Virus record (IMG/VR): IMGVR_UViG_2690316278_000007
Direction: 5' to 3' (one strand)
From: a virus
Taxonomy: Duplodnaviria > Heunggongvirae > Uroviricota > Caudoviricetes
Length of the DNA stretch: 10,909 nt
Part shown: one piece after another, positions 355-10,909 of the stretch
Numbering within the stretch: position 1 is the first letter of the stretch
Layout of the letters: each line of letters starts with the position of its first letter
The notes under the pieces: generated by a model
Seen by the model: only the letters and a program-made list of their open reading frames with translations
The model's database searches: none
What the model was told of the DNA's origin: nothing
Position numbers and translations under genes: made by a program

Positions 355-1615
355 TCACTCATCATCTTCTGTTTCGTACTCCACATCAGAAAGCCTTACC
401 TCAAGCTCCAAGGACGTCGTGAAGCCGCTATTATTGAGACAATGTGTCACCTTAGTGATGGTCCAGTCCTGCTCGTCTATGACGCGCTTAAAGCCTGACA
501 CTTTAACCGGTGTTTCCGTGTAAATATCTGCACGACCGGTAGCCAGGCTGATGGAGAACTCCGCTACACCCCGTTGCAGTTTATCCCACTTCGCCTGAGC
601 GGCGCGCATGGCCTGCGCTTTTGTGGCATATACCGTGGTCAGGGCAAAAACGTTGTCAGCTTCACCGGCCATGTATTCACCTTCGCGCGCTTCCGGTACT
701 TTTGGCGCTTTCTTCTGCGTGACCGGTTTCGCTTTCGGGTGCTCCAGTGCGCGCAGGTGTTTTTCTTTCTTTTTGCGTTTCAGTTTTACCTTCTGCTTTT
801 GCGGCTTCGGGTCTTTGGTGTGTAACCACTTTGCCGTTACGCCGGTGTAAGCTCCACGGTCAGCAATCGCAAAATGATGACGGTCGCCGTCGCTGCGGGT
901 GATGGTAATCTGCGGGATTTTTTTACCGCTGGCCGTCNNNNNNNNNNNNNNNNNNNNNNNNNNNNNNNNNNNNNNNNNNNNNNNNNNNNNNNNNNNNNNN
1001 NNNNNNNNNNNNNNNNNNNNNNNNNNNNNNNNNNNCCCCCTGCCCCGCTTTGAGAAACAGCAGTTTTCCCATTTTTACCGACACCTCGCCGCCGTTGCGT
1101 TCAGCAAGACGGGTCAGGAATTTCGCATCAGACTCCTGCGACTGGTCGATGTGTGGAATTTTTATTCCGGCCAGTGACGGAGCGACACTGGCTTCCAGCC
1201 TGTTACGGGAGGCTATCGCCTCAACAATCGCACCGAGCGTAATGTCATGCCATGAGCCTTCACGGCGGGAATTGAGCGTCCCGCGAAAATCTGCACTCCG
1301 GGCGCGGATGGTGACCACATCCGGCGCGCCCCGGTGTTCAACCTCATCAACGGTAAATTTCCCTTTGCATACCAGGGCAAAACCTTTCCAGCCGATATAC
1401 ACCGTCAGGACAGCGCCACGAACCGGCAGCCCGACCTGCCCGTCGGCATCGTTCAGTTCAATATCAAGCTGGTCAGCCTCAAAGCCCCGGTTATCCGTCA
1501 GGGTCATGCTCATCAGACGGTCGCTGATATTGCCGGTAATATCCCTGCTGTCGAGCATCAGCATGTAATCCGGCGTCAGCGTACTGCCTGCATCAAATGT
1601 CAGCGCATCCAGCAT
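355..1615 (-). CDS. D: Tail protein D (gpD), interrupted by the N-run 938-1035
   Basis: N-terminal part is ORF 923..1615 (MLDALTFDAGSTLTPDYMLMLDSRDITGN...KMGKLLFLKAGQG). Downstream of the N-run, one continuous minus-strand frame runs from 936 to the TGA at 355-357 (TASGKKIPQITITRSDGDRHHFAIADRGAYTG..., a Lys-rich linker, then MAGEADNVFALTT...EVRLSDVEYETEDDE). The two halves are in different frames only because the 98-nt N-run is not a multiple of 3. The ATG of D at 1615-1613 overlaps the TAA of U (TAATG). Confidence 0.85.
938..1035. other. Run of 98 N (masked or unsequenced) inside gene D
   Basis: Read directly from the sequence. The X-runs in the ORF track here are artefacts of this block. 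Confidence 1.
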
Positions 1616-2076
1616 TATCCCGCCCCCGTCATACCCGTGAATTTAGTCGCCATACTGCCAGCCTTACCGATGAGCGATTCCGCCTGTTTACCGATATCGC
1701 CATAAAGCGCGGCCAGTGACTCATCAACGCGGGTGAGCGACAGCGTAAAATCAATTTTCCGTGGTGTGCCGTCTGCAAAGAAAATACTCCCTGTTTCACT
1801 CACCTTGCTGATGACATACATGCCGTAAATCATGCCGGTGCCATCCAGCAACGGCCACGCCCGGCCTTCCTCTGCCATCAGTCTGAGCGTGGTCATCGTC
1901 AGCTTTCCGCCAGTCAGTTCGGGATAAAGCACACCGGCAAGTGTGATGTTCTCCTCACCTACACCGAGAAACTGATAGGCATCCCGTTTACCGATACGGG
2001 AATTTGACGGCCAGCGATAATCTGATTCACGCTGCATGGTCTGGTGTGGCAGCGTCTGGCGCATAAAAACAAACAT
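1615..2076 (-). CDS. U: Tail protein U (gpU); true 5' end may lie in the N-run starting at 2083
   Basis: 153-aa minus-strand ORF (MFVFMRQTLPHQ...LIGKAGSMATKFTGMTGAG) located between T and D as in P2. Its stop overlaps the D start. The frame remains open upstream of the ATG at 2076 into the N block, so the start is uncertain. Confidence 0.8.
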   Translation of the reverse strand: MFVFMRQTLPHQTMQRESDYRWPSNSRIGKRDAYQFLGVGEENITLAGVLYPELTGGKLTMTTLRLMAEEGRAWPLLDGTGMIYGMYVISKVSETGSIFFADGTPRKIDFTLSLTRVDESLAALYGDIGKQAESLIGKAGSMATKFTGMTGAG

Positions 2077-2082
2077 ACCTAA

Positions 2083-2581
2083 NNNNNNNNNNNNNNNNNN
2101 NNNNNNNNNNNNNNNNNNNNNNNNNNNNNNNNNNNNNNNNNNNNNNNNNNNNNNNNNNNNNNNNNNNNNNNNNNNNNNNNNNNNNNNNNNNNNNNNNNNN
2201 NNNNNNNNNNNNNNNNNNNNNNNNNNNNNNNNNNNNNNNNNNNNNNNNNNNNNNNNNNNNNNNNNNNNNNNNNNNNNNNNNNNNNNNNNNNNNNNNNNNN
2301 NNNNNNNNNNNNNNNNNNNNNNNNNNNNNNNNNNNNNNNNNNNNNNNNNNNNNNNNNNNNNNNNNNNNNNNNNNNNNNNNNNNNNNNNNNNNNNNNNNNN
2401 NNNNNNNNNNNNNNNNNNNNNNNNNNNNNNNNNNNNNNNNNNNNNNNNNNNNNNNNNNNNNNNNNNNNNNNNNNNNNNNNNNNNNNNNNNNNNNNNNNNN
2501 NNNNNNNNNNNNNNNNNNNNNNNNNNNNNNNNNNNNNNNNNNNNNNNNNNNNNNNNNNNNNNNNNNNNNNNNNNNNNNNNN
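2083..2581. other. Run of 499 N covering the T 3' end / U 5' region
   Basis: Read directly from the sequence. Only a 37-nt readable island (2582-2618) separates it from the next N-run. Confidence 1.
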
Positions 2582-4783
2582 TCACGGCAACGGTTCAGGG
2601 TGTCCTGGGTGGCTTTGANNNNNNNNNNNNNNNNNNNNNNNNNNNNNNNNNNNNNNNNNNNNNNNNNNNNNNNNNNNNNNNNNNNNNNNNNNNNNNNNNN
2701 NNNNNNNNNNNNNNNNNNNNNNNNNNNNNNNNNNNNNNNNNNNNNNNNNNNNNNNNNNNNNNNNNNNNNNNNNNNNNNNNNNNNNNNNNNNNNNNNNNNN
2801 NNNNNNNNNNNNNNNNNNNNNNNNNNNNNNNNNNNNNNNNNNNNNNNNNNNNNNNNNNNNNNNNNNNNNNNNNNNNNNNNNNNNNNNNNNNNNNNNNNNN
2901 NNNNNNNNNNNNNNNNNNNNNNNNNNNNNNNNNNNNNNNNNNNNNNNNNNNNNNNNNNNNNNNNNNNNNNNNNNNNNNNNNNNNNNNNNNNNNNNNNNNN
3001 NNNNNNNNNNNNNNNNNNNNNNNNNNNNNNNNNNNNNNNNNNNNNNNNNNNNNNNNNNNNNNNNNNNNNNNNNNNNNNNNNNNNNNNNNNNNNNNNNNNN
3101 NNNNNNNNNNNNNNNNNNNNNNNNNNNNNNNNNNNNNNNNNNNNNNNNNNNNNNNNNNNNNNNNNNNNNNNNNNNNNNNNNNNNNNNNNNNNNNNNNNNN
3201 NNNNNNNNNNNNNNNNNNNNNNNNNNNNNNNNNNNNNNNNNNNNNNNNNNNNNNNNNNNNNNNNNNNNNNNNNNNNNNNNNNNNNNNNNNNNNNNNNNNN
3301 NNNNNNNNNNNNNNNNNNNNNNNNNNNNNNNNNNNNNNNNNNNNNNNNNNNNNNNNNNNNNNNNNNNNNNNNNNNNNNNNNNNNNNNNNNNNNNNNNNNN
3401 NNNNNNNNNNNNNNNNNNNNNNNNNNNNNNNNNNNNNNNNNNNNNNNNNNNNNNNNNNNNNNCCCCGAAAATGGTTTTCATGTATTCGGCCTGCTGGGCA
3501 GTACCGAGCCGGTTTTTCTCAAAGCTGGCCTGCATTTCTTTCAGAATGGTAAATACTGGTCGGGTGTTTCCCTTACTGTCTGAGGTTTTCACGCCAAGCT
3601 CTTTGAGTGCATCCCATGCTTTTCCAGTCGGTGCCTGCAGGCGACTTAACACGGCACGGCTTCCCGTCCCCGCCATTGAGCCTGTGATTTTTGCATCATG
3701 CAGCGCCCCGACCATTGCGGCGGTTTCTTCAATGCTGACACCGGCATTTTTTGCCACTGGTGCGGCATAGGTCAGCGCATCGCTCATGCCGTCAAAATCA
3801 GCGGCGGTTTTGTTCATCGTCATGGAGAGAACATCCCCGATATGAGCGACCTTATCGTTTGAAAGCTGAAAGGCGGATTTCATCCCCATCAGCAGGGCGG
3901 CGTTTTCTTCCATTGTGCGGCGGTTCGCCAGCGCCATATTCAGCGTGACCGGCGTTGCCGCCTGAATGGCATCAACATCCCCACCCGCTTTCGCAATGAT
4001 AATCTGTGCACCGGCCGCATCATCCGCTGAGGCGGCGGTGTTGTCACCGAGCTGGCGCGCCTGCTTGCGGAGTGCAGCCATTTCGGCGGAGTCTTTTGCC
4101 ACACCGAGCACAGCCTGCAATTCTGAGTTTTTCTGCGCAAACTCATAACCTGGCATCAGCAGCTTAACTCCGGCTATCGTTCCCGCAGCAGCAATCCCCA
4201 CACCGGCAGCGCCCACTGAGGCCATATTTCCGGCCAGTTCCTTTCCGGCCTGATAACGCTGTTTGACTGCGTTAAGTTTTGCCTGTTGCGCACTGACACG
4301 CGCCAGCGCGTCACGCTGCCGGTTAAGCTGGGCGGTGGTTTCACTGATACGGTTTTTCAGTCCCTGCTCATCATGTGCAAGATTGCGGGTATTAATTCCC
4401 ACAGCGGCCAGTTCCCGCTGCTGGCGTTTAACGGAATCTGTCAGGCGGTTATATTTCGCCTGTAAGTCCTCCGCCGCACGCTTTGCGGATTCCAGCACTT
4501 TCGCCTGAGCACGGGTCGGGCGTTCGGTGTTTTTAAACTGTGTGGCAAGGGCTTCGGCCTCCTGCCGTGCCTTTTCAAGTGCATGACCAGTCACGGCGAG
4601 CTGTGCACTGGTCTTGCGGAATCCCTCAATACGGGATGCGTGACCGTTCAGCTCGCGCAGTGATTTTTGTGTTTCCCGGATATCCCCCGACAGCAACTTA
4701 CTCGCTCTGCGGATGGATTTAAACGGGCGGGACGCCTGGTCAACAGCCCTGAGCAATACCTGTAATTTTACATTGTTACTCAT
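2582..4783 (-). CDS. T: Tail tape measure protein (gpT); only 3463-4783 (N-terminal ~440 aa) is readable, and the 3' end is hidden in the N-runs
   Basis: Minus-strand ORF starting ATG 4783-4781 (MSNNVKLQVLLRAVDQASRPFKSIRRASKLL...). It is long, Ala/Gln/Arg-rich and predicted helical, and follows E/E' as in P2. The start overlaps the E' stop (ATGAGTAA). The left coordinate is taken from the ORF track and is not a real gene end. Confidence 0.8.
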   Translation of the reverse strand: MSNNVKLQVLLRAVDQASRPFKSIRRASKLLSGDIRETQKSLRELNGHASRIEGFRKTSAQLAVTGHALEKARQEAEALATQFKNTERPTRAQAKVLESAKRAAEDLQAKYNRLTDSVKRQQRELAAVGINTRNLAHDEQGLKNRISETTAQLNRQRDALARVSAQQAKLNAVKQRYQAGKELAGNMASVGAAGVGIAAAGTIAGVKLLMPGYEFAQKNSELQAVLGVAKDSAEMAALRKQARQLGDNTAASADDAAGAQIIIAKAGGDVDAIQAATPVTLNMALANRRTMEENAALLMGMKSAFQLSNDKVAHIGDVLSMTMNKTAADFDGMSDALTYAAPVAKNAGVSIEETAAMVGALHDAKITGSMAGTGSRAVLSRLQAPTGKAWDALKELGVKTSDSKGNTRPVFTILKEMQASFEKNRLGTAQQAEYMKTIFGXXXXXXXXXXXXXXXXXXXXXXXXXXXXXXXXXXXXXXXXXXXXXXXXXXXXXXXXXXXXXXXXXXXXXXXXXXXXXXXXXXXXXXXXXXXXXXXXXXXXXXXXXXXXXXXXXXXXXXXXXXXXXXXXXXXXXXXXXXXXXXXXXXXXXXXXXXXXXXXXXXXXXXXXXXXXXXXXXXXXXXXXXXXXXXXXXXXXXXXXXXXXXXXXXXXXXXXXXXXXXXXXXXXXXXXXXXXXXXXXXXXXXXXXXXXXXXXXXXXXXXXXXXXXXXXXXXXXXXXXXXQSHPGHPEPLP
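2619..3462. other. Run of 844 N inside the tape measure gene
   Basis: Read directly from the sequence. Confidence 1.
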
Positions 4784-5203
4784 TCGTGTTTCCGCTTCGC
4801 CTGAGCGCCTTTTCGCGCCATGTGATGAGTTCGGTCAGGCTCATGGGATACAGTTCTGATGGCGGCCAGTGAAATATCACTGCCACATCCGCCATCAGGT
4901 CATCGACCGACAGATTTTTCGGAAGCGTCACTGCACCGAGTTCGGCGACAAAAAACCGACCACCTTACCGGCCAGCGCCACAAGGTCAGGCAGTTCCAGC
5001 GCGGCGACTTCCTGCTCGGTCAGCATCGGTGCCGTCATGCGCGGCAGCACCTTAATCAGTGCATCGACTTCTGAGTTTGCGACCGCAGCCAGACTGACAC
5101 CGCGCAGCGTCCCCGCACTGGGTTTCATCAGCGTGACCTGTTCGATAACCTGCTCACCACGCTTGACCGGATTGTCCAGGGTAATCACATTTTCTTTGTT
5201 CAT
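4776..5203 (-). CDS. E+E': gpE+E', tail assembly chaperone made by programmed -1 ribosomal frameshift (about 142 aa)
   Basis: Slippery heptamer T_TTT_TTG on the minus strand (coords 4955-4949) sits 6 codons before the E stop. I translated the -1 frame from 4949 by hand and it stays open for 57 codons (VAELGAVTLPKNLSVDDLMADVAVIFHWPPSELYPMSLTELITWREKALRRSGNTNE) to a TAA at 4778-4776, overlapping the T start codon. 85 + 57 = 142 aa. Confidence 0.75.
4928..5203 (-). CDS. E: Tail assembly chaperone gpE (91 aa, zero-frame product)
   Basis: Minus-strand ORF MNKENVITLDNPVKRGEQVIEQVTLMKP...KVVGFLSPNSVQ, ending TGA at 4930-4928. Position between FII and T matches P2. Confidence 0.9.
   Translation of the reverse strand: MNKENVITLDNPVKRGEQVIEQVTLMKPSAGTLRGVSLAAVANSEVDALIKVLPRMTAPMLTEQEVAALELPDLVALAGKVVGFLSPNSVQ
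4949..4955 (-). other. Slippery heptamer TTTTTTG for the E/E' -1 frameshift
   Basis: Plus strand reads CAAAAAA at 4949-4955, which is T TTT TTG on the coding strand in the E zero frame (codons GGT TTT TTG). Confidence 0.7.
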
Positions 5204-5231
5204 GGTTTTCTCACTTCTGAATCGGGGTTAA

Positions 5232-5259: not shown

Positions 5260-5778
5260 TTACAGGCCGATATTGCGGCGGTGTTGCTCCAGCCGGTCGA
5301 CGCCGTTCACCTTCTCAATCATGTTGATGGTGTCGATTTCGACCAGCTCCTTACCGTCCATCGTCAGCCGGAAATAGGTGCAGACCACGGAGATTTTCGA
5401 CTCGGTGTCTTCTCCCTGTTTACCCTCGCCGGTGTCGATTTCTTTCTGACGGCCACGCATGACCACCTCTACGGCCACCGTTTCGCCGGTATCGTCACGC
5501 TGGTAAGAGCCTGCAAAACGAATCGGCACGGCATCCACACCGGTTGCGGCGTAAAGCTCCCAGATAACCGAATCCGGGAAGCCCCCGAGCGACCACTCCA
5601 TTGACAGCGCATCGTCATCAAGGCCGAGGTCTACCGGTGCGCTTCCGTTCATCCCCGCACCGCGATAGTTTTCGAGTTTACGGGTCAGTTTTGGCAGCGT
5701 GACGGACTTTGCAACGCCCTGATAGCTGTAGCCGTTCAGAAAGACGTTCATTAACTTGAGTTTGCGCGGCATTGCCAT
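5260..5778 (-). CDS. FII: Tail tube protein gpFII (172 aa)
   Basis: Minus-strand ORF MAMPRKLKLMNVFLNGYSYQGVAKSVTLPKLTRKLENYRGAG... GGAG Shine-Dalgarno in the 12-nt spacer after the FI stop. Size and position as in P2. Confidence 0.92.
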   Translation of the reverse strand: MAMPRKLKLMNVFLNGYSYQGVAKSVTLPKLTRKLENYRGAGMNGSAPVDLGLDDDALSMEWSLGGFPDSVIWELYAATGVDAVPIRFAGSYQRDDTGETVAVEVVMRGRQKEIDTGEGKQGEDTESKISVVCTYFRLTMDGKELVEIDTINMIEKVNGVDRLEQHRRNIGL

Positions 5779-5790
5779 CGGTCAGGCTCC

Positions 5791-6981
5791 TTAATTGCTG
5801 TTAACCGAGGTGACCAGATTTGCCAGGTATTTATCGGTAATACGCTGGCGCAGGGTCAGGTTTTCAAGAGGAGGCACCGGGGTATAGTCGTAGTCGATAT
5901 ACAGTTTTCCGGCCTTGAGGGTTTCCGCATCGTTGGATTCTTCGCTGAACCAGCAGGTCGCATCCACGATATAGCCGTTTGTTTTCAGCTCACGGAATTT
6001 GGCATTGATGCCGTCAACGATGTCGCGAATCAGCGTTGCGGTGATGGGCTTGTCCACCGCCCACATGTGCGCCTCAGCCATCGTGTCGGCCAGCACCTGC
6101 GCGGTGCGGGTGTAGTTTTCAAAGAGGAACAGCGGGTCATCAGAGCAGGTACGGTTACCCCAGAAGCGGAAACCGTCACGGCGAATCAGCGTTGTGACGC
6201 CTGACTCGTTAAGCAGGTCAGCATCGGTGCCGGACTCCTGCAAATCCCAGAATACGGACGCGCTGATGCCGGTAACACCGTTCACCCCGACGTTGGACAG
6301 CGTTTTATGCCAGCCCTGCTCCTGGTCGATTTTAGCGCGCAGACCCAGCGCACGGGCGGTGGCATACGCGGTGGCGGTGGTACTGGCGACCGTATCCCAT
6401 GCGAGGAAATCCGGCCAGATGACCATCAGCTCACGCTGGCTGAAATTCTGACGGTAGGCTTTCACCTCGGAAACGGTCTTACAGCCCCATGCGCTGATAT
6501 ACCCGAAAGCGCGCAGCTTCTGACAGACTGATGCCAGTGCAACAGCCACCTCTTTGGTGTCCAGTCCCGGCACGCCGAGAATACGCGGTTTAACACCGGT
6601 TACCGACTCCGCCGCCAGCAGGGCTTTCAGTCCGGTGTACTGACCGTTTTCGTCGGTGGTGCCGATGATATTGGAAACGGTCTGCGCGAGTTTCGTTTCC
6701 TCGTCGTCGCCGGTGCCGTCTTCCACACGCACGACAACGGTGACCGGTTTTGACTGGTCGGCGATGGCCTGCAACGATGCCGCCAGCGTGCCTTTTTTAC
6801 CGGCCTTTGCAATTGCGCTCTGCACATTGGTAATCAGCACCGGTTTATTGAGGGGGAAGGTTTCCGCATCCGCATCGCTGGCCGTGCAGACCATGCCGAC
6901 AATGGCAGTGGATACGGTGGAAATGACGCGGGTGCCGTCGTTAATCTCCAGCACCTGCACGCCGTGATGATAGTCACTCAT
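5791..6981 (-). CDS. FI: Tail sheath protein gpFI (396 aa)
   Basis: Minus-strand ORF MSDYHHGVQVLEINDGTRVISTVSTAIVGMV..., first gene of the FI-FII-E-T-U-D operon. GGAG lies about 10 nt upstream of the ATG at 6981. Confidence 0.92.
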   Translation of the reverse strand: MSDYHHGVQVLEINDGTRVISTVSTAIVGMVCTASDADAETFPLNKPVLITNVQSAIAKAGKKGTLAASLQAIADQSKPVTVVVRVEDGTGDDEETKLAQTVSNIIGTTDENGQYTGLKALLAAESVTGVKPRILGVPGLDTKEVAVALASVCQKLRAFGYISAWGCKTVSEVKAYRQNFSQRELMVIWPDFLAWDTVASTTATAYATARALGLRAKIDQEQGWHKTLSNVGVNGVTGISASVFWDLQESGTDADLLNESGVTTLIRRDGFRFWGNRTCSDDPLFLFENYTRTAQVLADTMAEAHMWAVDKPITATLIRDIVDGINAKFRELKTNGYIVDATCWFSEESNDAETLKAGKLYIDYDYTPVPPLENLTLRQRITDKYLANLVTSVNSN

Positions 6982-7073: not shown

Positions 7074-7105
7074 AGATAAAGAAAATGCGGGCAATTCGCC
7101 CGCAT
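7074..7105 (-). terminator. Candidate intrinsic terminator acting on leftward (minus-strand) transcription just upstream of the FI promoter
   Basis: Perfect 8-bp GC-rich stem ATGCGGGC (7085-7092) / GCCCGCAT (7098-7105) with a 5-nt loop. On the minus-strand transcript it is followed directly by UUUUCUUUAU (7084-7074). No comparable U-tract follows on the plus strand. Confidence 0.45.
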
Positions 7106-7391: not shown

Positions 7392-8810
7392 ATGACATAC
7401 GCACTGATTGATAATTCAACTCTAACTGCAGTCCAAAGAATCGAGGGGAAAGTAAAAACAAGATCGAAGGACTCAGTAGATACAGACATAATAGCATTTG
7501 AGAACTATATACAGTCTATTTTGTTCTATGATCACGTTATCGCGGTTGATGATTATATTCCAGAGTACCGTGGGAGTAGGATTTCAAGTTTCAGAGAGAT
7601 ATTATTTCTTGATAAAGCACAATATGGGTTGGATGAAATTGAAAGTGAAGCAAAAAAAATATCTGATGCATTGAAACCTAAAATTCGTGGTGGAACATTT
7701 GTTAATGACGATTTTAAAAAACTAATTGAACTTCTTCAGACACATATCATATGTACATGGGACATTAGTTCAAGTGTTTATCATCTAACACTGAAGAACT
7801 TATCTGATGGAGGTAAGGAGTTTGAAAAATATGGTAACATTGCTGCTGCCATTTTTTCAGAACTGCGTGATGCTGCTGAGTCTGGTAATAGAACAAATGG
7901 CGATGTTGAACTTCTCGATCGATTTGGCAACCCTATTCGCAAGGGGTACAAAGTTCCCGGAGCAAAATGGGGGGATGGCACATCTGCTGGTGAAGCATCA
8001 GATGCAATCAAAGCATTCGTGGCTTCGCTTGTATGGCTGGCTAATCGGGCAGTATTTTATTCTCTCACAGCTAAGTACCTTCAAGCAGATACTTTTTTAT
8101 ATCCATTACGTCAGGCGTATCAACAGACATATTTAAGCCAAAACTGTCAGTATGGTTTTGACTATGCTAAACATATTGTAGAAAACTTTTCCACTTCGTT
8201 AAGTCATGATCTCATTGATATTCATTCTGGTGGTAAAGCTGTAGCAACAGCAACTTCGCTTCCTTTATTTTCGGCATGGCTCGCAAAAGAAACTGGTGAT
8301 CCAAGTTGTATTGTTGAAGCTGCTTATAACATAAGGGACAACAACGAATTTGTAAGGGCCCGTGAGAAAATGCGAGAAATAAAGCGCTTGTTTGATGAAA
8401 ATGAATTGCCTCAAGCTAATAAGTCAGTAAGAGCATTGCTTACTGAAGTATCGAAAGAATCAGATTATATTCGAACTAAGTATGGGCTCAAGACTAGACA
8501 AGGTGTACCTGTAACTAAGCTTGTACATGTATACAATACTGTTGCGGCTATTAATTCCCTTCCGAAACTACCGACCTTTAATTTTAAAGTTAAAGTTCCT
8601 GATTTCTTATATGATCTTAAAAAACCCAAGGGGTTTCGTGCTCTCTATCGAAATTTGACTAATGATCTTTCTACTGTGTGGTCGTTAGGAGAAGCTCGAG
8701 ATATTCTTGGAAGTAAAGTTGTGATAGATAATCATGCAAGAATTTACAGTCCGAAGCATGAAGAACCGCGTTTCAAAAACTCTCATTCCCCATATAAGAG
8801 CCCGATGTAG
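7392..8810 (+). CDS. Hypothetical 472-aa protein of unknown function; AT-rich cargo gene in the G-FI (P2 Z/fun-type) slot
   Basis: Uninterrupted 1419-nt ORF, ATG 7392 to TAG 8808-8810, on the strand opposite to all flanking phage genes, with its own promoter and SD. G+C is about 35-38% in the two 60-nt lines I counted, against about 60% in a sampled FI line. No Walker A, no obvious HEPN Rx4-6H, no clear PD-(D/E)xK motif and no evident transmembrane segment. Confidence 0.85.
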   Translation: MTYALIDNSTLTAVQRIEGKVKTRSKDSVDTDIIAFENYIQSILFYDHVIAVDDYIPEYRGSRISSFREILFLDKAQYGLDEIESEAKKISDALKPKIRGGTFVNDDFKKLIELLQTHIICTWDISSSVYHLTLKNLSDGGKEFEKYGNIAAAIFSELRDAAESGNRTNGDVELLDRFGNPIRKGYKVPGAKWGDGTSAGEASDAIKAFVASLVWLANRAVFYSLTAKYLQADTFLYPLRQAYQQTYLSQNCQYGFDYAKHIVENFSTSLSHDLIDIHSGGKAVATATSLPLFSAWLAKETGDPSCIVEAAYNIRDNNEFVRAREKMREIKRLFDENELPQANKSVRALLTEVSKESDYIRTKYGLKTRQGVPVTKLVHVYNTVAAINSLPKLPTFNFKVKVPDFLYDLKKPKGFRALYRNLTNDLSTVWSLGEARDILGSKVVIDNHARIYSPKHEEPRFKNSHSPYKSPM

Positions 8811-9455: not shown

Positions 9456-10909
9456 TTATACCTGTGCCACGTTATACCAAGTCCCGTTAATGTATTTCTG
9501 CACCGGTCTGTAATATACGCCACCAATGTTATCGGCAGAGTTTGAGCCGGTATCCTGAACAATAATGCCGGAATATACACACCCGGACGGTGCCTGATGT
9601 GTCCATGTCATACCATTGTTCGCAGGTTTGTATGTGGCAGCACCACCAAGCCGGATATCCCGGACATAGCGTGAATCAAAGTTGCCATAGTTAGATGGTG
9701 ATACCTGCCCGTTAACAGCAAAAGTGATGCTGTTATCTGTATTTCTCTGACTGTAAAAATGCCAGCCTGCATCATCACCTAATTCAGCCACCACAGGACG
9801 ACTTGAGTTTCCCCACAAATTGAATGCGGCTTCCTTCGTGGATGTATTGCTGCTGCTGACCGTGAACTTTTTCCCGCTACCGGCACGTACTTTGGTACTT
9901 GAGACAATATCACCTGTAACACTCAGGCCATGCCCCATTGACACTCCGCCATTGGCGTTATTGATAGTCAGCGGTCTTAAGCCGTTCCATGTCCCAAATT
10001 TATCGCCAGAGGCCGTCAGCATTAAATATGTGCTGCCGCCATCATTCCTGATAAAGAATCCATAATTGCCATAAGCAATGCGCAGACCATTAGCACTGAG
10101 TGATGTAATTTCACCTCTTGAACGGAGACCATAAGCGGAGCTGAGTGATAATTCTTCCTGAGCGTCATTGTTTCCTGTCGCCCAGCGAATTACCCCGCCC
10201 TGAACTGTTTCATGCCAGATAGTATCTCCTTCTCCACCACGAAACTTTCTGAGATATTTTTTGCCGCCTCTGGTGCCTGAACATAAGGCCGTAGACATAT
10301 AGGCATTCTGGCTTCCGCCATCCTGATTAATCGTTCCGGTCATTGAGTCGCCCTGACGATTCCAGTCACGACGCCAGCCGGGGGAGTAGCCGTCCCCATG
10401 ATTTATGTAAGTGAATTGCGCGCTGGTTGTACCGCCACCGCTTGATGTTGTTGGCGTGGTCACTCGGATAGTGATTGCAGATTTAGTTCCCATGACCTCG
10501 ACGACACAACCAGCCAGGTGGATATCACCACATCCGGTATCCGTAATGATTTTGTTATTTGCATATGACCAGGAGCCTTTGCACATCCAGTACGGATGAT
10601 TAAATGCACCACGGGAATCCAGCCATTCAATAAACTGAGCGGTTGTCCAGTTTCCGGCTTCAGTGCTCAAAGCGCCGCTATAAGCACGACAGGCACCGAT
10701 ATTTTTCGTGAAGGTATCCTTTCCCGGAATATCCGCACCGTTCTGATCTTTCTGAAGACGTTTTTCAGCATTGTCATAGGCAGACTTCACTGCTTTTGGC
10801 GTTGCGGCCAGCGTTTCAGAATCGCTGTTGATGGCACTACTTAGCTGGACAAGACCTTTTCGCGCTGTGGTGGCATCCTGTGCAGTGTATTTCCCGTTAG
10901 CAAGGTCAT
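9456..10909 (-). CDS. H: Tail fibre protein gpH, 5'-truncated by the window edge (C-terminal ~484 codons present)
   Basis: The frame stays open from the window edge (codon at 10907-10905) to the TAA at 9458-9456. The edge-proximal translation DLANGKYTAQDATTARKGLVQLSSAINSDSETLAATPKAVK... looks like P2-type H. The M at 10790 in the ORF track is an internal GTG, not the start. Confidence 0.85.
   Translation of the reverse strand, partial: DLANGKYTAQDATTARKGLVQLSSAINSDSETLAATPKAVKSAYDNAEKRLQKDQNGADIPGKDTFTKNIGACRAYSGALSTEAGNWTTAQFIEWLDSRGAFNHPYWMCKGSWSYANNKIITDTGCGDIHLAGCVVEVMGTKSAITIRVTTPTTSSGGGTTSAQFTYINHGDGYSPGWRRDWNRQGDSMTGTINQDGGSQNAYMSTALCSGTRGGKKYLRKFRGGEGDTIWHETVQGGVIRWATGNNDAQEELSLSSAYGLRSRGEITSLSANGLRIAYGNYGFFIRNDGGSTYLMLTASGDKFGTWNGLRPLTINNANGGVSMGHGLSVTGDIVSSTKVRAGSGKKFTVSSSNTSTKEAAFNLWGNSSRPVVAELGDDAGWHFYSQRNTDNSITFAVNGQVSPSNYGNFDSRYVRDIRLGGAATYKPANNGMTWTHQAPSGCVYSGIIVQDTGSNSADNIGGVYYRPVQKYINGTWYNVAQV

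Follow-up and report, generated by a model that had tools for sequence, protein, structure and literature searches.

The slippery heptamer of bacteriophage lambda is G_GGA_AAG, unlike the T_TTT_TTG of the locus analyzed here, and that of dnaX in Escherichia coli is A_AAA_AAG, which is preceded by an SD-like stimulator and followed by a stem-loop. The lambda gpG/gpGT pair and the chaperone frameshift of long-tailed phages have been treated by Levin (1993) and by Xu, Hendrix and Duda (2004, 2013, 2014), which are taken here as cited in PMC5009743. The corresponding frameshift of P2 was reported by Christie et al. (2002, J Bacteriol 184:6522), as cited in PMC5009743, PMC3091744, and PMC3931495. 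It takes place at TTTTTTG and gives rise to a 91-aa E and a 142-aa E+E' (PMC3091744), with a reported efficiency 2- to 3-fold above the approximately 1:30 of lambda (PMC5009743). The E' part has no ribosome-binding site and overlaps both neighboring genes, E (by 37 nt) and T (PMC3931495). In the P2 record NC_001895 (P2p25/P2p26), E is entered together with E+E', a joined CDS with the remark "-1 frameshift; essential tail protein"; the heptamer occupies 19678..19684 and the annotated frameshift site is 19685, one base past the heptamer. Because the P2 frameshift has been published and is annotated in this record, the E/E' frameshift at the present site is already known and ordinary. It is the textbook P2 recoding site in another E. 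coli prophage, and the sequence-only reading that had called it well supported but not novel judged rightly, as the site is essentially the published one.

Anatomy and genomic setting of the E/E' locus

The window, i.e. the whole stretch of 10,909 nucleotides that was analyzed, holds the tail operon of an E. coli P2-like (Peduovirus) prophage. Between positions 4700 and 5300 the DNA is 98% identical to P2 and many Peduovirus phages, and one E. coli prophage matches the region at 100%. The gene order FI-FII-E-E'-T-U-D is collinear with P2, and the E/E+E' pair is situated between FII (tube) and T (tape measure), with the end of E' overlapping the start of T. All features are on the minus strand.

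5260..5778, minus strand: FII (tail tube), directly upstream of E; Pfam PF04985 Phage_tube, E = 2e-60; collinear with P2 FII
4928..5203, minus strand: E (tail assembly chaperone), frame 0, 91 aa; ATG at 5203, TGA at 4930..4928; from the ORF and its translation
4949..4955, minus strand: slippery heptamer T_TTT_TTG in phase X_XXY_YYZ (frame-0 codons GGT TTT TTG); read directly
4776..4949, minus strand: E' segment in the -1 frame, 57 sense codons (4949..4779) followed by TAA (4778..4776); from translation
4776..4783, minus strand: ATGAGTAA, the 8-nt overlap between the E+E' stop TAA (4778..4776) and the T ATG (4783..4781); read directly
3463..4783, minus strand: 5' part of T (tape measure), readable until the N run starting at 3462; Pfam PF10145 PhageMin_Tail, E = 6e-46; collinear with P2 T

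The coordinates given in the sequence-only reading were all correct; the strand had been left unstated, and they fit the minus strand. Direct reading confirmed that the heptamer (4955..4949) precedes the E stop by six sense codons, TCG CCG AAC TCG GTG CAG, as had been claimed. The claim that the -1 frame is open for 57 codons to a TAA within ATGAGTAA, where the ATG is the T start, was also borne out; the first of these codons is GTC (4949..4947) and the last GAG (4781..4779). Likewise, the length of 142 aa assigned to the fusion held: E+E' is join(5203..4949, 4949..4776), in which base 4949 is read twice, and consists of 85 + 57 residues with the canonical Leu85 junction as in UniProt O64312, the classical product of simultaneous slippage. 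The predicted tryptic peptide across the junction is VVGFLVAELGAVTLPK if residue 85 is Leu (simultaneous slippage) and VVGFFVAELGAVTLPK if it is Phe (slip before A-site decoding). Counted between its flanking stops, the -1 frame comprises 62 codons (4964..4779) and therefore overlaps the 3' end of E by 37 nt, a feature that has also been reported for P2. The zone in which both frames are open (4964..4931) contains the heptamer.

The window is interrupted by three N runs (938-1035, 2083-2581, and 2619-3462). A gene arrangement in which T would be 733 aa long, with a new 168-aa gene after it and D in two parts, was rejected, because these downstream ORF calls are artefacts of the N runs. None of the antisense ORFs over the site (4869..5231, 4859..5074, and 4713..4859, plus strand) had a Pfam match. 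The Z/fun slot of the prophage holds a cargo gene other than that of P2; a single-sequence AlphaFold model of the cargo ORF (472 aa) reached a mean pLDDT of 38.5 and was unusable.

Homology, conservation, and coding selection on both sides of the slip site

The E protein has zero amino acid differences from P2 gpE, and its exact sequence is found in the cluster named TAP_BPP2. It matches Pfam PF10109 (Phage_TAC_7) over residues 7-85 (E = 1.3e-12, above the curated cut-off) and PHROG 103 (tail, E = 1e-42). The -1 extension is homologous to E', as had been proposed: its translation matches Pfam PF06528 (Phage_P2_GpE) over residues 104-139 (E = 1.2e-21), and PHROG 1756 bridges the junction, covering residues 82-142 of the fusion (E = 5.5e-29). 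The suggested alignment of the 142-aa product with P2 E+E' (NP_046780.1/UniProt O64312) yielded a single substitution, L94 here and F94 in P2. A tblastn search with the fusion retrieved 424 phage records, 401 of them with at least 80% coverage and almost always in two pieces corresponding to the two frames, and in the alignment the junction is at a column of homologous residues ("GFF/GFL"). Searches of NCBIfam and of PDB sequences with the fusion gave no match.

The likeness to P2 extends from the genes, which are the same (FETUD tail operon), to the details of the recoding site. The heptamer is at the identical offset (249-255 of E) with six codons to the E stop, the 37-nt back-overlap and the ATGAGTAA overlap with T are identical, and the T ATG is offset by 420 from the E ATG both here and in the P2 annotation. 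With E identical and E+E' identical at 141 of 142 residues, the loci differ in 9 of 428 nucleotides and in the one conservative substitution at residue 94. The sequence-only reading had also likened the site to the chaperone frameshifts P2 E/E' and lambda G/GT, and this is supported, the P2 record annotating the same site. As in lambda, two overlapping ORFs lie between the major tail (tube) and tape measure genes; short and long products share an N terminus, their ratio would come from the slip frequency, and neither product is expected in the virion. In contrast to P2, sequence similarity to lambda gpG/gpT is undetectable, as a Pfam scan (E <= 0.01) gave PF10109 and PF06528 only and a PDB search yielded no relative; what links the site to lambda is mechanism and gene position, not shown family membership.

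In-phase X_XXY_YYZ heptamers number nine in the approximately 2,540 codons of the window, and only one of the nine is followed by a long -1 ORF, of 58 codons including the slipped A-site codon versus 2-21 codons for the other eight. When the segment was shuffled by mononucleotides, 7% of the shuffles stayed open as long. Judged from the sequence, the decisive evidence beyond chance is the homology of the -1 product (PF06528, E = 1e-21) together with conservation. A set of 18 diverse Peduoviridae loci showed no exception: E' is read in the -1 frame in each of them, and the zone shared by the two frames contains an X_XXY_YYZ heptamer in phase, with the non-homopolymeric G_GGA_AAG, C_CCT_TTC, and A_AAT_TTT among these heptamers. 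The same arrangement was found in 310 of 312 viral contigs (from a set of 313), and the two exceptional contigs carry a 1-nt indel in a G-run. Across 118 distinct contexts from four clades, the X_XXY_YYZ phase is kept in all and T_TTT_TTG itself in 115. Among 73 distinct sequences of the P2 clade, the heptamer is invariant and the fusion frame uninterrupted in every one, and neither the window nor any of these relatives has a stop in the -1 frame, whereas the E stop codon varies between TGA, TAA, and TAG. The stop/start overlap is maintained as ATGAGTAA in 71 and as ATGAGTGA in 2 of the 73 sequences, and in almost every lineage the E+E' stop either overlaps the T start or lies directly next to it.

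The positions of variable sites reveal coding selection in each frame. Within E, 66 of 78 variable sites are at third positions of frame 0; past the E stop, 31 of 48 are at third positions of the -1 frame; and past the T start, 23 of 29 are at third positions of the T frame. The phase of the substitution periodicity changes at the slip site.

Proposed ribosomal slippage and its alternatives

On this evidence from sequence comparison, the locus is almost certainly the E/E+E' tail assembly chaperone pair of a P2-like (Peduovirus) E. coli prophage, made via a programmed -1 ribosomal frameshift. No feature of the sequence speaks against this reading. Ribosomes would initiate at the E ATG (5203), and most of them would stay in frame 0 to the TGA at 4930..4928, giving the 91-aa E. 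A minority would slip one base back with tRNA-Phe (UUU, P site) and tRNA-Leu (UUG, A site) on U_UUU_UUG (4955..4949), where both tRNAs should be able to re-pair on UUU after the slip. The slipped ribosomes would then translate 57 more codons in the -1 frame to give the 142-aa E+E', ending at the TAA in ATGAGTAA, over the T start. By analogy with lambda gpG/gpGT, the common N-terminal E domain would bind the tape measure protein, and the E' domain, present only after the slip, would recruit the tube protein. Because P2 is a contractile-tail phage, its E' domain would presumably have as its partner FII, the tube protein enclosed by the sheath. The ratio of E to E+E' would be fixed by the slip frequency and not by separate promoters or ribosome-binding sites. 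Slippage itself, its efficiency, and the chaperone roles are expected here by extension from the P2 and lambda literature, and published P2 work similarly leads us to expect that the 142-aa fusion is produced and that both E and E+E' are needed in tail assembly.

A highly improbable alternative is transcriptional slippage, in which RNA polymerase would add an extra U on T6 and a subset of the mRNAs would encode E+E' in one frame, from which the fusion would arise by ordinary translation. The slip site is a homopolymer, T6 here and T7 in some relatives, and at P2-type loci the sequence alone is unable to separate transcriptional from ribosomal slippage. However, productive transcriptional slippage in bacteria has been described for runs of approximately 9 A or T (PMC5009743), against a run of 6 here. 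Polymerase slippage would moreover require neither the X_XXY_YYZ phase that is kept in 118 of 118 contexts nor the G at position 7 that is present in 115 of them. At the equivalent place in distant relatives, the three non-homopolymeric heptamers given above are unable to support polymerase slippage, and only ribosomal slippage accounts for them.

Even less likely is that E' is an independent small gene with its own start, i.e. 51 aa from GTG 4931 or 39 aa from ATG 4892: although RefSeq/PGAP has a separate 156-nt "GpE family phage tail protein" overlapping the E stop, the 51-aa sequence goes by this name in about 1,000 contigs, and the ORF listing gives a GTG-started ORF at 4776..4931, the GTG is not kept even in close relatives (TTA, ATA, or GTA in Kp4887-2, PSP3, and YenM_56.17), and Met104 becomes V, I, A, E, or Y in other lineages. 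No SD was seen in the sequence at a workable distance from an E' start, as the literature also describes E' without a ribosome-binding site (PMC3931495); homology and -1-frame coding selection extend 5' of both candidate starts, back to the heptamer, and the joined product is marked as essential in the P2 reference record.

Candidate stimulators and consequences for annotation

Two elements flanking the heptamer were considered with regard to the programmed ribosomal frameshift.

4958..4967, minus strand: SD-like stretch UAAGGUGGUC, a hypothetical frameshift stimulator that ends 2 nt 5' of the heptamer
4856..4898, minus strand: stable hairpin in the E' coding region, located 50 nt beyond the heptamer in the 3' direction; arms CUGAUGGCGG/CCGCCAUCAG, with a further 6-bp stem inside

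The duplex of UAAGGUGGUC with the 3' tail of 16S rRNA was calculated at -14.0 kcal/mol, which is in the top 2.5% of windows at the locus. Its aligned spacing is 7 nt, compared with 9 nt for dnaX and 3 nt for prfB by the same metric, and with a published range of 9-14 nt for -1 frameshifting it is borderline. GUAAGGUGGU is invariant in the 73 distinct sequences, three synonymous positions included, and the SD-like stretch recurs in several clades; when the element was compared with synonymous recodings in the P2 clade, p was only approximately 0.1. The features shared with dnaX are a -1 slip on X_XXY_YYZ in E. coli and a strong anti-SD-complementary stretch just upstream. Besides the spacing, dnaX differs in having a stem-loop at the canonical distance, which is absent here, and in that its frameshift product is a truncation, whereas the product here is an extension. 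UAAGGUGGUC may act as a slippage stimulator, but the sequence evidence is only suggestive.

Given the 8-nt stop/start overlap, T may be translationally coupled to E+E'. A combined scheme, in which base pairing of UAAGGUGGUC with the 16S rRNA tail would increase -1 slippage in the manner of dnaX while the overlap would couple T synthesis to the frameshifted minority of ribosomes, is put forward tentatively and is rather doubtful. The SD-like stimulator, if true, would be a modest mechanistic refinement. Neither SD-like stimulation nor T coupling was found for P2 in the literature examined; the primary paper of 2002 may discuss them.

As for a canonical downstream stimulator, the 59 nt that follow the heptamer show no folding stability beyond that of shuffled sequences (z = -0.4), and at 5-9 nt past the shift site, where a stimulatory stem-loop would be expected, there is none. 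This agrees with a published remark that P2 is without a downstream hairpin (PMC3091744). An Rfam search of the entire window gave zero matches. The more distant hairpin is stable, its 60-nt segment (4901..4842) having an MFE of -25.2 kcal/mol (z = -3.7 versus shuffles), a stability above that of 99.5% of synonymous recodings. It was nevertheless rejected as a stimulator because of its distance of 50 nt, its absence from about half of the distant relatives, and arm changes in close relatives that are all uncompensated; it is probably incidental. An intrinsic terminator at 4976..4955 using the T-run was also rejected, since 4 of its 8 pairs are G·U, the count falls in the range expected from shuffles, and Kp4887-2 has a disrupted stem.

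The importance of the site as a discovery is small, and its practical value concerns annotation. A collection of 15 billion proteins does not contain the 142-aa fusion encoded by this prophage, and the E and E' halves have been deposited as separate genes, about a thousand times each. RefSeq/PGAP annotates E' as a stand-alone 51-aa protein. P2-like tail operons are present in 2,129 of 5,426 complete E. coli genomes, and the misannotation of E' is therefore very widespread.

The E/E+E′ site and its counterpart in P2

The minus strand is the coding strand for the genes of the window, and the E region comprises the following elements.

5203 to 4928, minus strand: E reading frame, from ATG at 5203 to TGA at 4930..4928, 91 aa
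4955..4949, minus strand: heptamer T_TTT_TTG, frame-0 codons GGT TTT TTG, close to the end of E
4949..4779, minus strand: −1 frame past the heptamer, 57 codons, followed by TAA at 4778..4776
4783..4776, minus strand: ATGAGTAA, containing the TAA of the −1 frame and the ATG of the next long ORF

The sequence-only reading had correctly placed the heptamer six sense codons ahead of the E stop, and its phase X_XXY_YYZ is the one required for tandem −1 slippage. The further description, a −1 frame of 57 codons that ends at the TAA within ATGAGTAA, where the ATG is the start of the tape-measure gene T, was also accurate. The −1 frame is open from 4964 with a stop-to-stop length of 62 codons, and therefore extends 37 nt back into E. 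A −1 shift at the heptamer leads to a product of 142 aa, the length that had been predicted. The reference P2 protein (NP_046780.1, UniProt O64312) has Leu85 at the junction (…GFL·VAELG…), which is the product expected when the A-site tRNA is selected on UUG and both tRNAs then slip. With this junction, 85 residues are read in frame 0 and 57 in frame −1, in agreement with the length of the −1 frame.

The readable coding sequence of the window (~2,540 codons) contains nine in-phase slippery heptamers. A long −1 ORF, of 58 codons including the slipped A-site codon, follows the heptamer in E alone; the other eight have 2–21 codons. About 7% of composition-matched shuffles stay open equally long. 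The geometry by itself is suggestive of a frameshift but not decisive; homology and conservation decide the case.

The 601 bases around the site match 74 Peduovirus phage records (E. coli and Yersinia phages, P2 among them) at 95–99% identity and an E. coli HCM-28C-2 prophage at 100%. From the F promoter through FI, FII, E, E′, T, U and D to ogr the window is collinear with P2, and family searches assigned its products as follows.

6981..5791: sheath domains (Pfam)
5778..5260: Phage_tube (Pfam)
ORF from 4783: PhageMin_Tail, tape measure (Pfam)
2076..1615: Phage_P2_GpU (Pfam)
Downstream of Phage_P2_GpU: Phage_GPD (Pfam)
Fusion residues 7–85: Phage_TAC_7, "tail assembly chaperone proteins, E, or 41 or 14" (Pfam E = 1.3e-12)
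Fusion residues 104–139: Phage_P2_GpE, giving the −1 extension its E′ homology (Pfam E = 1.2e-21)
Fusion residues 82–142: PHROG 1756, spanning the frameshift junction

E shows zero amino-acid differences from P2 gpE, and alignment of the fusion with P2 E+E′ revealed a single different residue (L94 in the window, F94 in P2), with 9 of 428 nucleotides differing. In the P2 reference record E is annotated, E+E′ is given as a joined CDS, and a "site of −1 translational frameshift" is marked one base past the same heptamer. A −1 frameshift at TTTTTTG of P2, yielding 91-aa E and 142-aa E+E′ from one start, is set out by Lynch et al. 2010 (PMC3091744), and Lee et al. 2014 (PMC3931495) describe the E/E′ arrangement as conserved among P2-like phages and analogous to lambda. 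Because the literature already describes it, the site in the window is the published P2 site itself and not a mere relative. The observation is confirmed, and its interpretation as the already-known P2 E/E+E′ programmed −1 frameshift, a mechanism that the sequence-only reading had likened to P2 E/E′ and lambda G/GT, is supported by the P2 record, homology, frame conservation and the published site.

Conservation of the −1 frame and the slip site

The 142-aa fusion was applied as a tblastn query against 50,697 phage records. Matches were obtained in 424 records, 401 of them with at least 80% query coverage, and nearly all of these 401 matched in two pieces corresponding to two reading frames. 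A diverse set of 18 loci consisted of P2, the window and 16 tblastn-matched loci from Klebsiella, Salmonella, Yersinia, Burkholderia, Ralstonia, Pseudomonas, Zymomonas, Aliivibrio, Vibrio and Mannheimia hosts. All 18 have an E′ homologue in the −1 frame relative to E, and all 18 have an in-phase heptamer within the zone where both frames are open. This heptamer is T_TTT_TTG in 13 loci; the remaining five have T_TTT_TTT (two loci), T_TTT_TTC, G_GGA_AAG, C_CCT_TTC or A_AAT_TTT. In the aligned fusions the junction falls in a single homologous column ("GFF/GFL"), and five of the six invariant residues lie within the E′ domain.

Variable sites were assigned to codon positions in the window, P2, Kp4887-2, PSP3 and YenM_56.17. 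Frame-0 third positions account for 66 of the 78 variable sites in E. Past the E stop, 31 of 48 are −1-frame third positions and 12 are second positions, and past the T start T-frame third positions make up 23 of 29. The pattern switches phase at the slip site, so the very stretch that the model has translated in the −1 frame is under purifying selection in that frame.

None of 73 distinct IMG/VR sequences of the P2 clade departs from the heptamer or interrupts the fusion frame. The stop/start overlap is kept as ATGAGTAA in 71 and as ATGAGTGA in two, and the E stop codon varies between TGA, TAA and TAG. When 313 contigs of four clades were surveyed uniformly, 310 of the 312 scorable loci had E′ in the −1 frame together with an in-phase heptamer. 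The two exceptions, L197 and L198 (IMG/VR 641736129_000011 and 641736127_000006), represent one phiE202-type sequence that is one G short in a G-run ~30 nt 5′ of the heptamer (GGGGG versus GGGGGG in relatives), which formally places E′ in the +1 frame and truncates E. The missing G is probably due either to a sequencing error in the homopolymer or to an indel that inactivates.

Judged from sequence, the T6 run at the slip site would also be compatible with transcriptional slippage. This explanation is disfavoured, since the run is short, the ribosomal phase is strictly kept with a G at position 7 in 115 of 118 contexts, and the heptamers of distant relatives are non-homopolymeric, which fits ribosomal slippage and is hard to reconcile with slippage of the polymerase. 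Independent translation of E′, which RefSeq/PGAP annotates as a stand-alone gene, is contradicted by two candidate starts that are unconserved, by the lack of a usable SD, and by homology and −1-frame selection that extend back to the heptamer. Plus-strand ORFs over the region were rejected, with zero family matches.

Candidate stimulators and proposed mechanism

Two elements flanking the slip site were considered as stimulators of the −1 frameshift.

4967..4958, minus strand: SD-like UAAGGUGGUC, directly 5′ of the heptamer
4898..4856, minus strand: hairpin of 10 bp plus 6 bp in the most conserved part of E′, codons for LMADVAVIFHWPPSE

Predicted pairing of UAAGGUGGUC with the 16S rRNA 3′ tail amounts to −14.0 kcal/mol, within the top 2.5% of windows at the locus. 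Of the 13 T_TTT_TTG loci in the diverse set, 11 have a similar element ahead of the heptamer, and the five loci with other heptamers have none. These elements differ in sequence and encoded residues (AGGUGAUC, GGGGGGU, GGGGGUGG, GAGGUGAC, CAGGUGAUC, GAGGUGGUGA). When spacing was scored identically throughout, the P2 group had 7 nt, Dobby, phiE202 and KS14 had 10–13 nt, dnaX had 9 and prfB had 3; the literature gives 9–14 nt for −1 frameshifts and 3 nt for +1 frameshifts.

Across the large survey, the upstream window ranked in the top 5% of its own E gene in 98% of the distinct contexts of the phiE202 set, 94% of those of the Fels-2 clade, 56% of those of the P2 clade and 38% of those of the Dobby set. 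When synonymous codons were resampled with the amino-acid sequence held fixed, the phiE202 set was clearly biased to pairing (58% at p ≤ 0.05, 0 above 0.5), the P2 and Fels-2 clades reached p of only ~0.1–0.17, and many Dobby loci had no SD-like element. The elements of the phiE202 (Burkholderia) set rest on the Gly codons GGG, GGA and GGU, which seldom reappear when synonymous codons are resampled at the codon usage of the set itself. All 73 distinct P2-clade sequences share GUAAGGUGGU unchanged, three synonymous positions included, and from there through the heptamer runs the most conserved third-position stretch of E, with a whole-gene permutation P of only 0.13. An upstream SD-like stimulator is plausible, and widespread without being universal; for the window it is a candidate only, and a modest, testable hypothesis arising from its site. 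Stretches complementary to the anti-SD recur 5′ of T_TTT_TTG in several Peduoviridae clades (window, L003-L012, L100-L259).

On the 3′ side, the 59 nt that follow the heptamer fold no better than shuffles (z = −0.4), and Rfam gave zero matches in the whole window. A downstream hairpin was not found in P2 or its Burkholderia relatives according to Lynch et al. 2010 (PMC3091744). The hairpin at 4898..4856 has an MFE of −25.2 kcal/mol, exceeds 99.5% of synonymous recodings in stability and lies 72 nt 5′ of the T start. It was rejected as a stimulator, being 50 nt 3′ of the slip site, with all arm changes in relatives uncompensated and no counterpart found in about half of the distant relatives. 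A terminator at 4976..4955 using the T-run as its tail was likewise rejected, having a weak, unconserved stem with four G·U pairs.

In lambda, copies of the G domain coat the tape-measure protein at a G:GT ratio of ~30:1, and recruitment of the major tail subunit falls to the T domain of GT, the rare fusion (Atkins et al. 2016, PMC5009743); the same paper puts P2-type efficiency 2- to 3-fold above that of lambda. Work on P2 and lambda provides the steps of a mechanism, to which this analysis contributes the established anatomy, homology, frame conservation and coding selection. Ribosomes would mostly yield E, and perhaps ~1 in 10 would slip at U_UUU_UUG to give E+E′. The E domains would bind the tape-measure protein T, and the E′ domain would connect the E–T complex to the tube protein FII, leading to tube polymerisation around T; both chaperones would be absent from the finished virion. 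After terminating, frameshifted ribosomes may reinitiate on T by way of the 8-nt stop/start overlap, which the P2 and Fels-2 clades retain and which gives way in other clades to an 11-nt or 4-nt overlap or near-abutment.

Annotation of E′ and other features of the window

4776-4931, minus strand (5314-5469 in the closest genome, L019): RefSeq/PGAP "GpE family phage tail protein", 51 aa, no ribosomal slippage annotated
938-1035, 2083-2581 and 2619-3462: N runs in genes D and T
7392-8810, plus strand: 472-aa ORF between the tail-fibre assembly gene G and the sheath gene FI

The annotated 51-aa E′ starts with a GTG overlapping the E stop. Its sequence occurs in ~1,000 contigs, the E and E′ halves have each been deposited ~1,000 times as separate proteins, and the 142-aa fusion of the window was not found in a collection of 15 billion proteins. 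Because P2-like tail operons are present in 2,129 of 5,426 complete E. coli genomes, the mis-annotation is systematic, and pointing out the missing fusion is a useful by-product. In Ralstonia phage RSY1 (AB981169; L009) the deposited annotation at 349-819 is a single 471-nt ORF30 in the E′ (−1) frame; the real E frame lacks annotation because the −1 frame happens to be open across the whole E region of this high-G+C genome.

The N runs of 98, 499 and 844 nt correspond to 3, 432 and 684 nt of real sequence in the closest genome; their excess length marks them as gaps or masks whose extent is unreliable. The "T of 733 aa", the "168-aa ORF 2079..2585" and the "split D" (923..1615, 355..672) are artefacts of these runs.

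The 472-aa ORF has a G+C content of 33-42%, compared to 53-60% in the tail genes, and occupies the slot that holds the T5-exclusion gene fun(Z) in P2. Searches of Pfam, NCBIfam, PADLOC and PDB sequences gave no match, the sole match being PHROG 13435, a family of unknown function. Single-sequence AlphaFold gave no usable model (pLDDT 38.5), and only 7 of 5,426 complete E. coli genomes carry the ORF in the same context. The ORF is a candidate cargo gene for lysogenic conversion or anti-phage activity. Between this ORF and FI, a terminator-like hairpin (7085-7105, minus strand; 9-bp stem with six G-C pairs, then a T-rich tail) adjoins the F-operon promoter region on its upstream side. At the end of the window, 10767-10909 in the tail-fibre gene H aligns to three places in L019 (11305-11711) that follow one another and overlap in part. 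The matches are 132 nt apart, one inside the main alignment and two at 87-89% identity, which indicates that the fibre gene holds tandem repeat units ~132 nt long.
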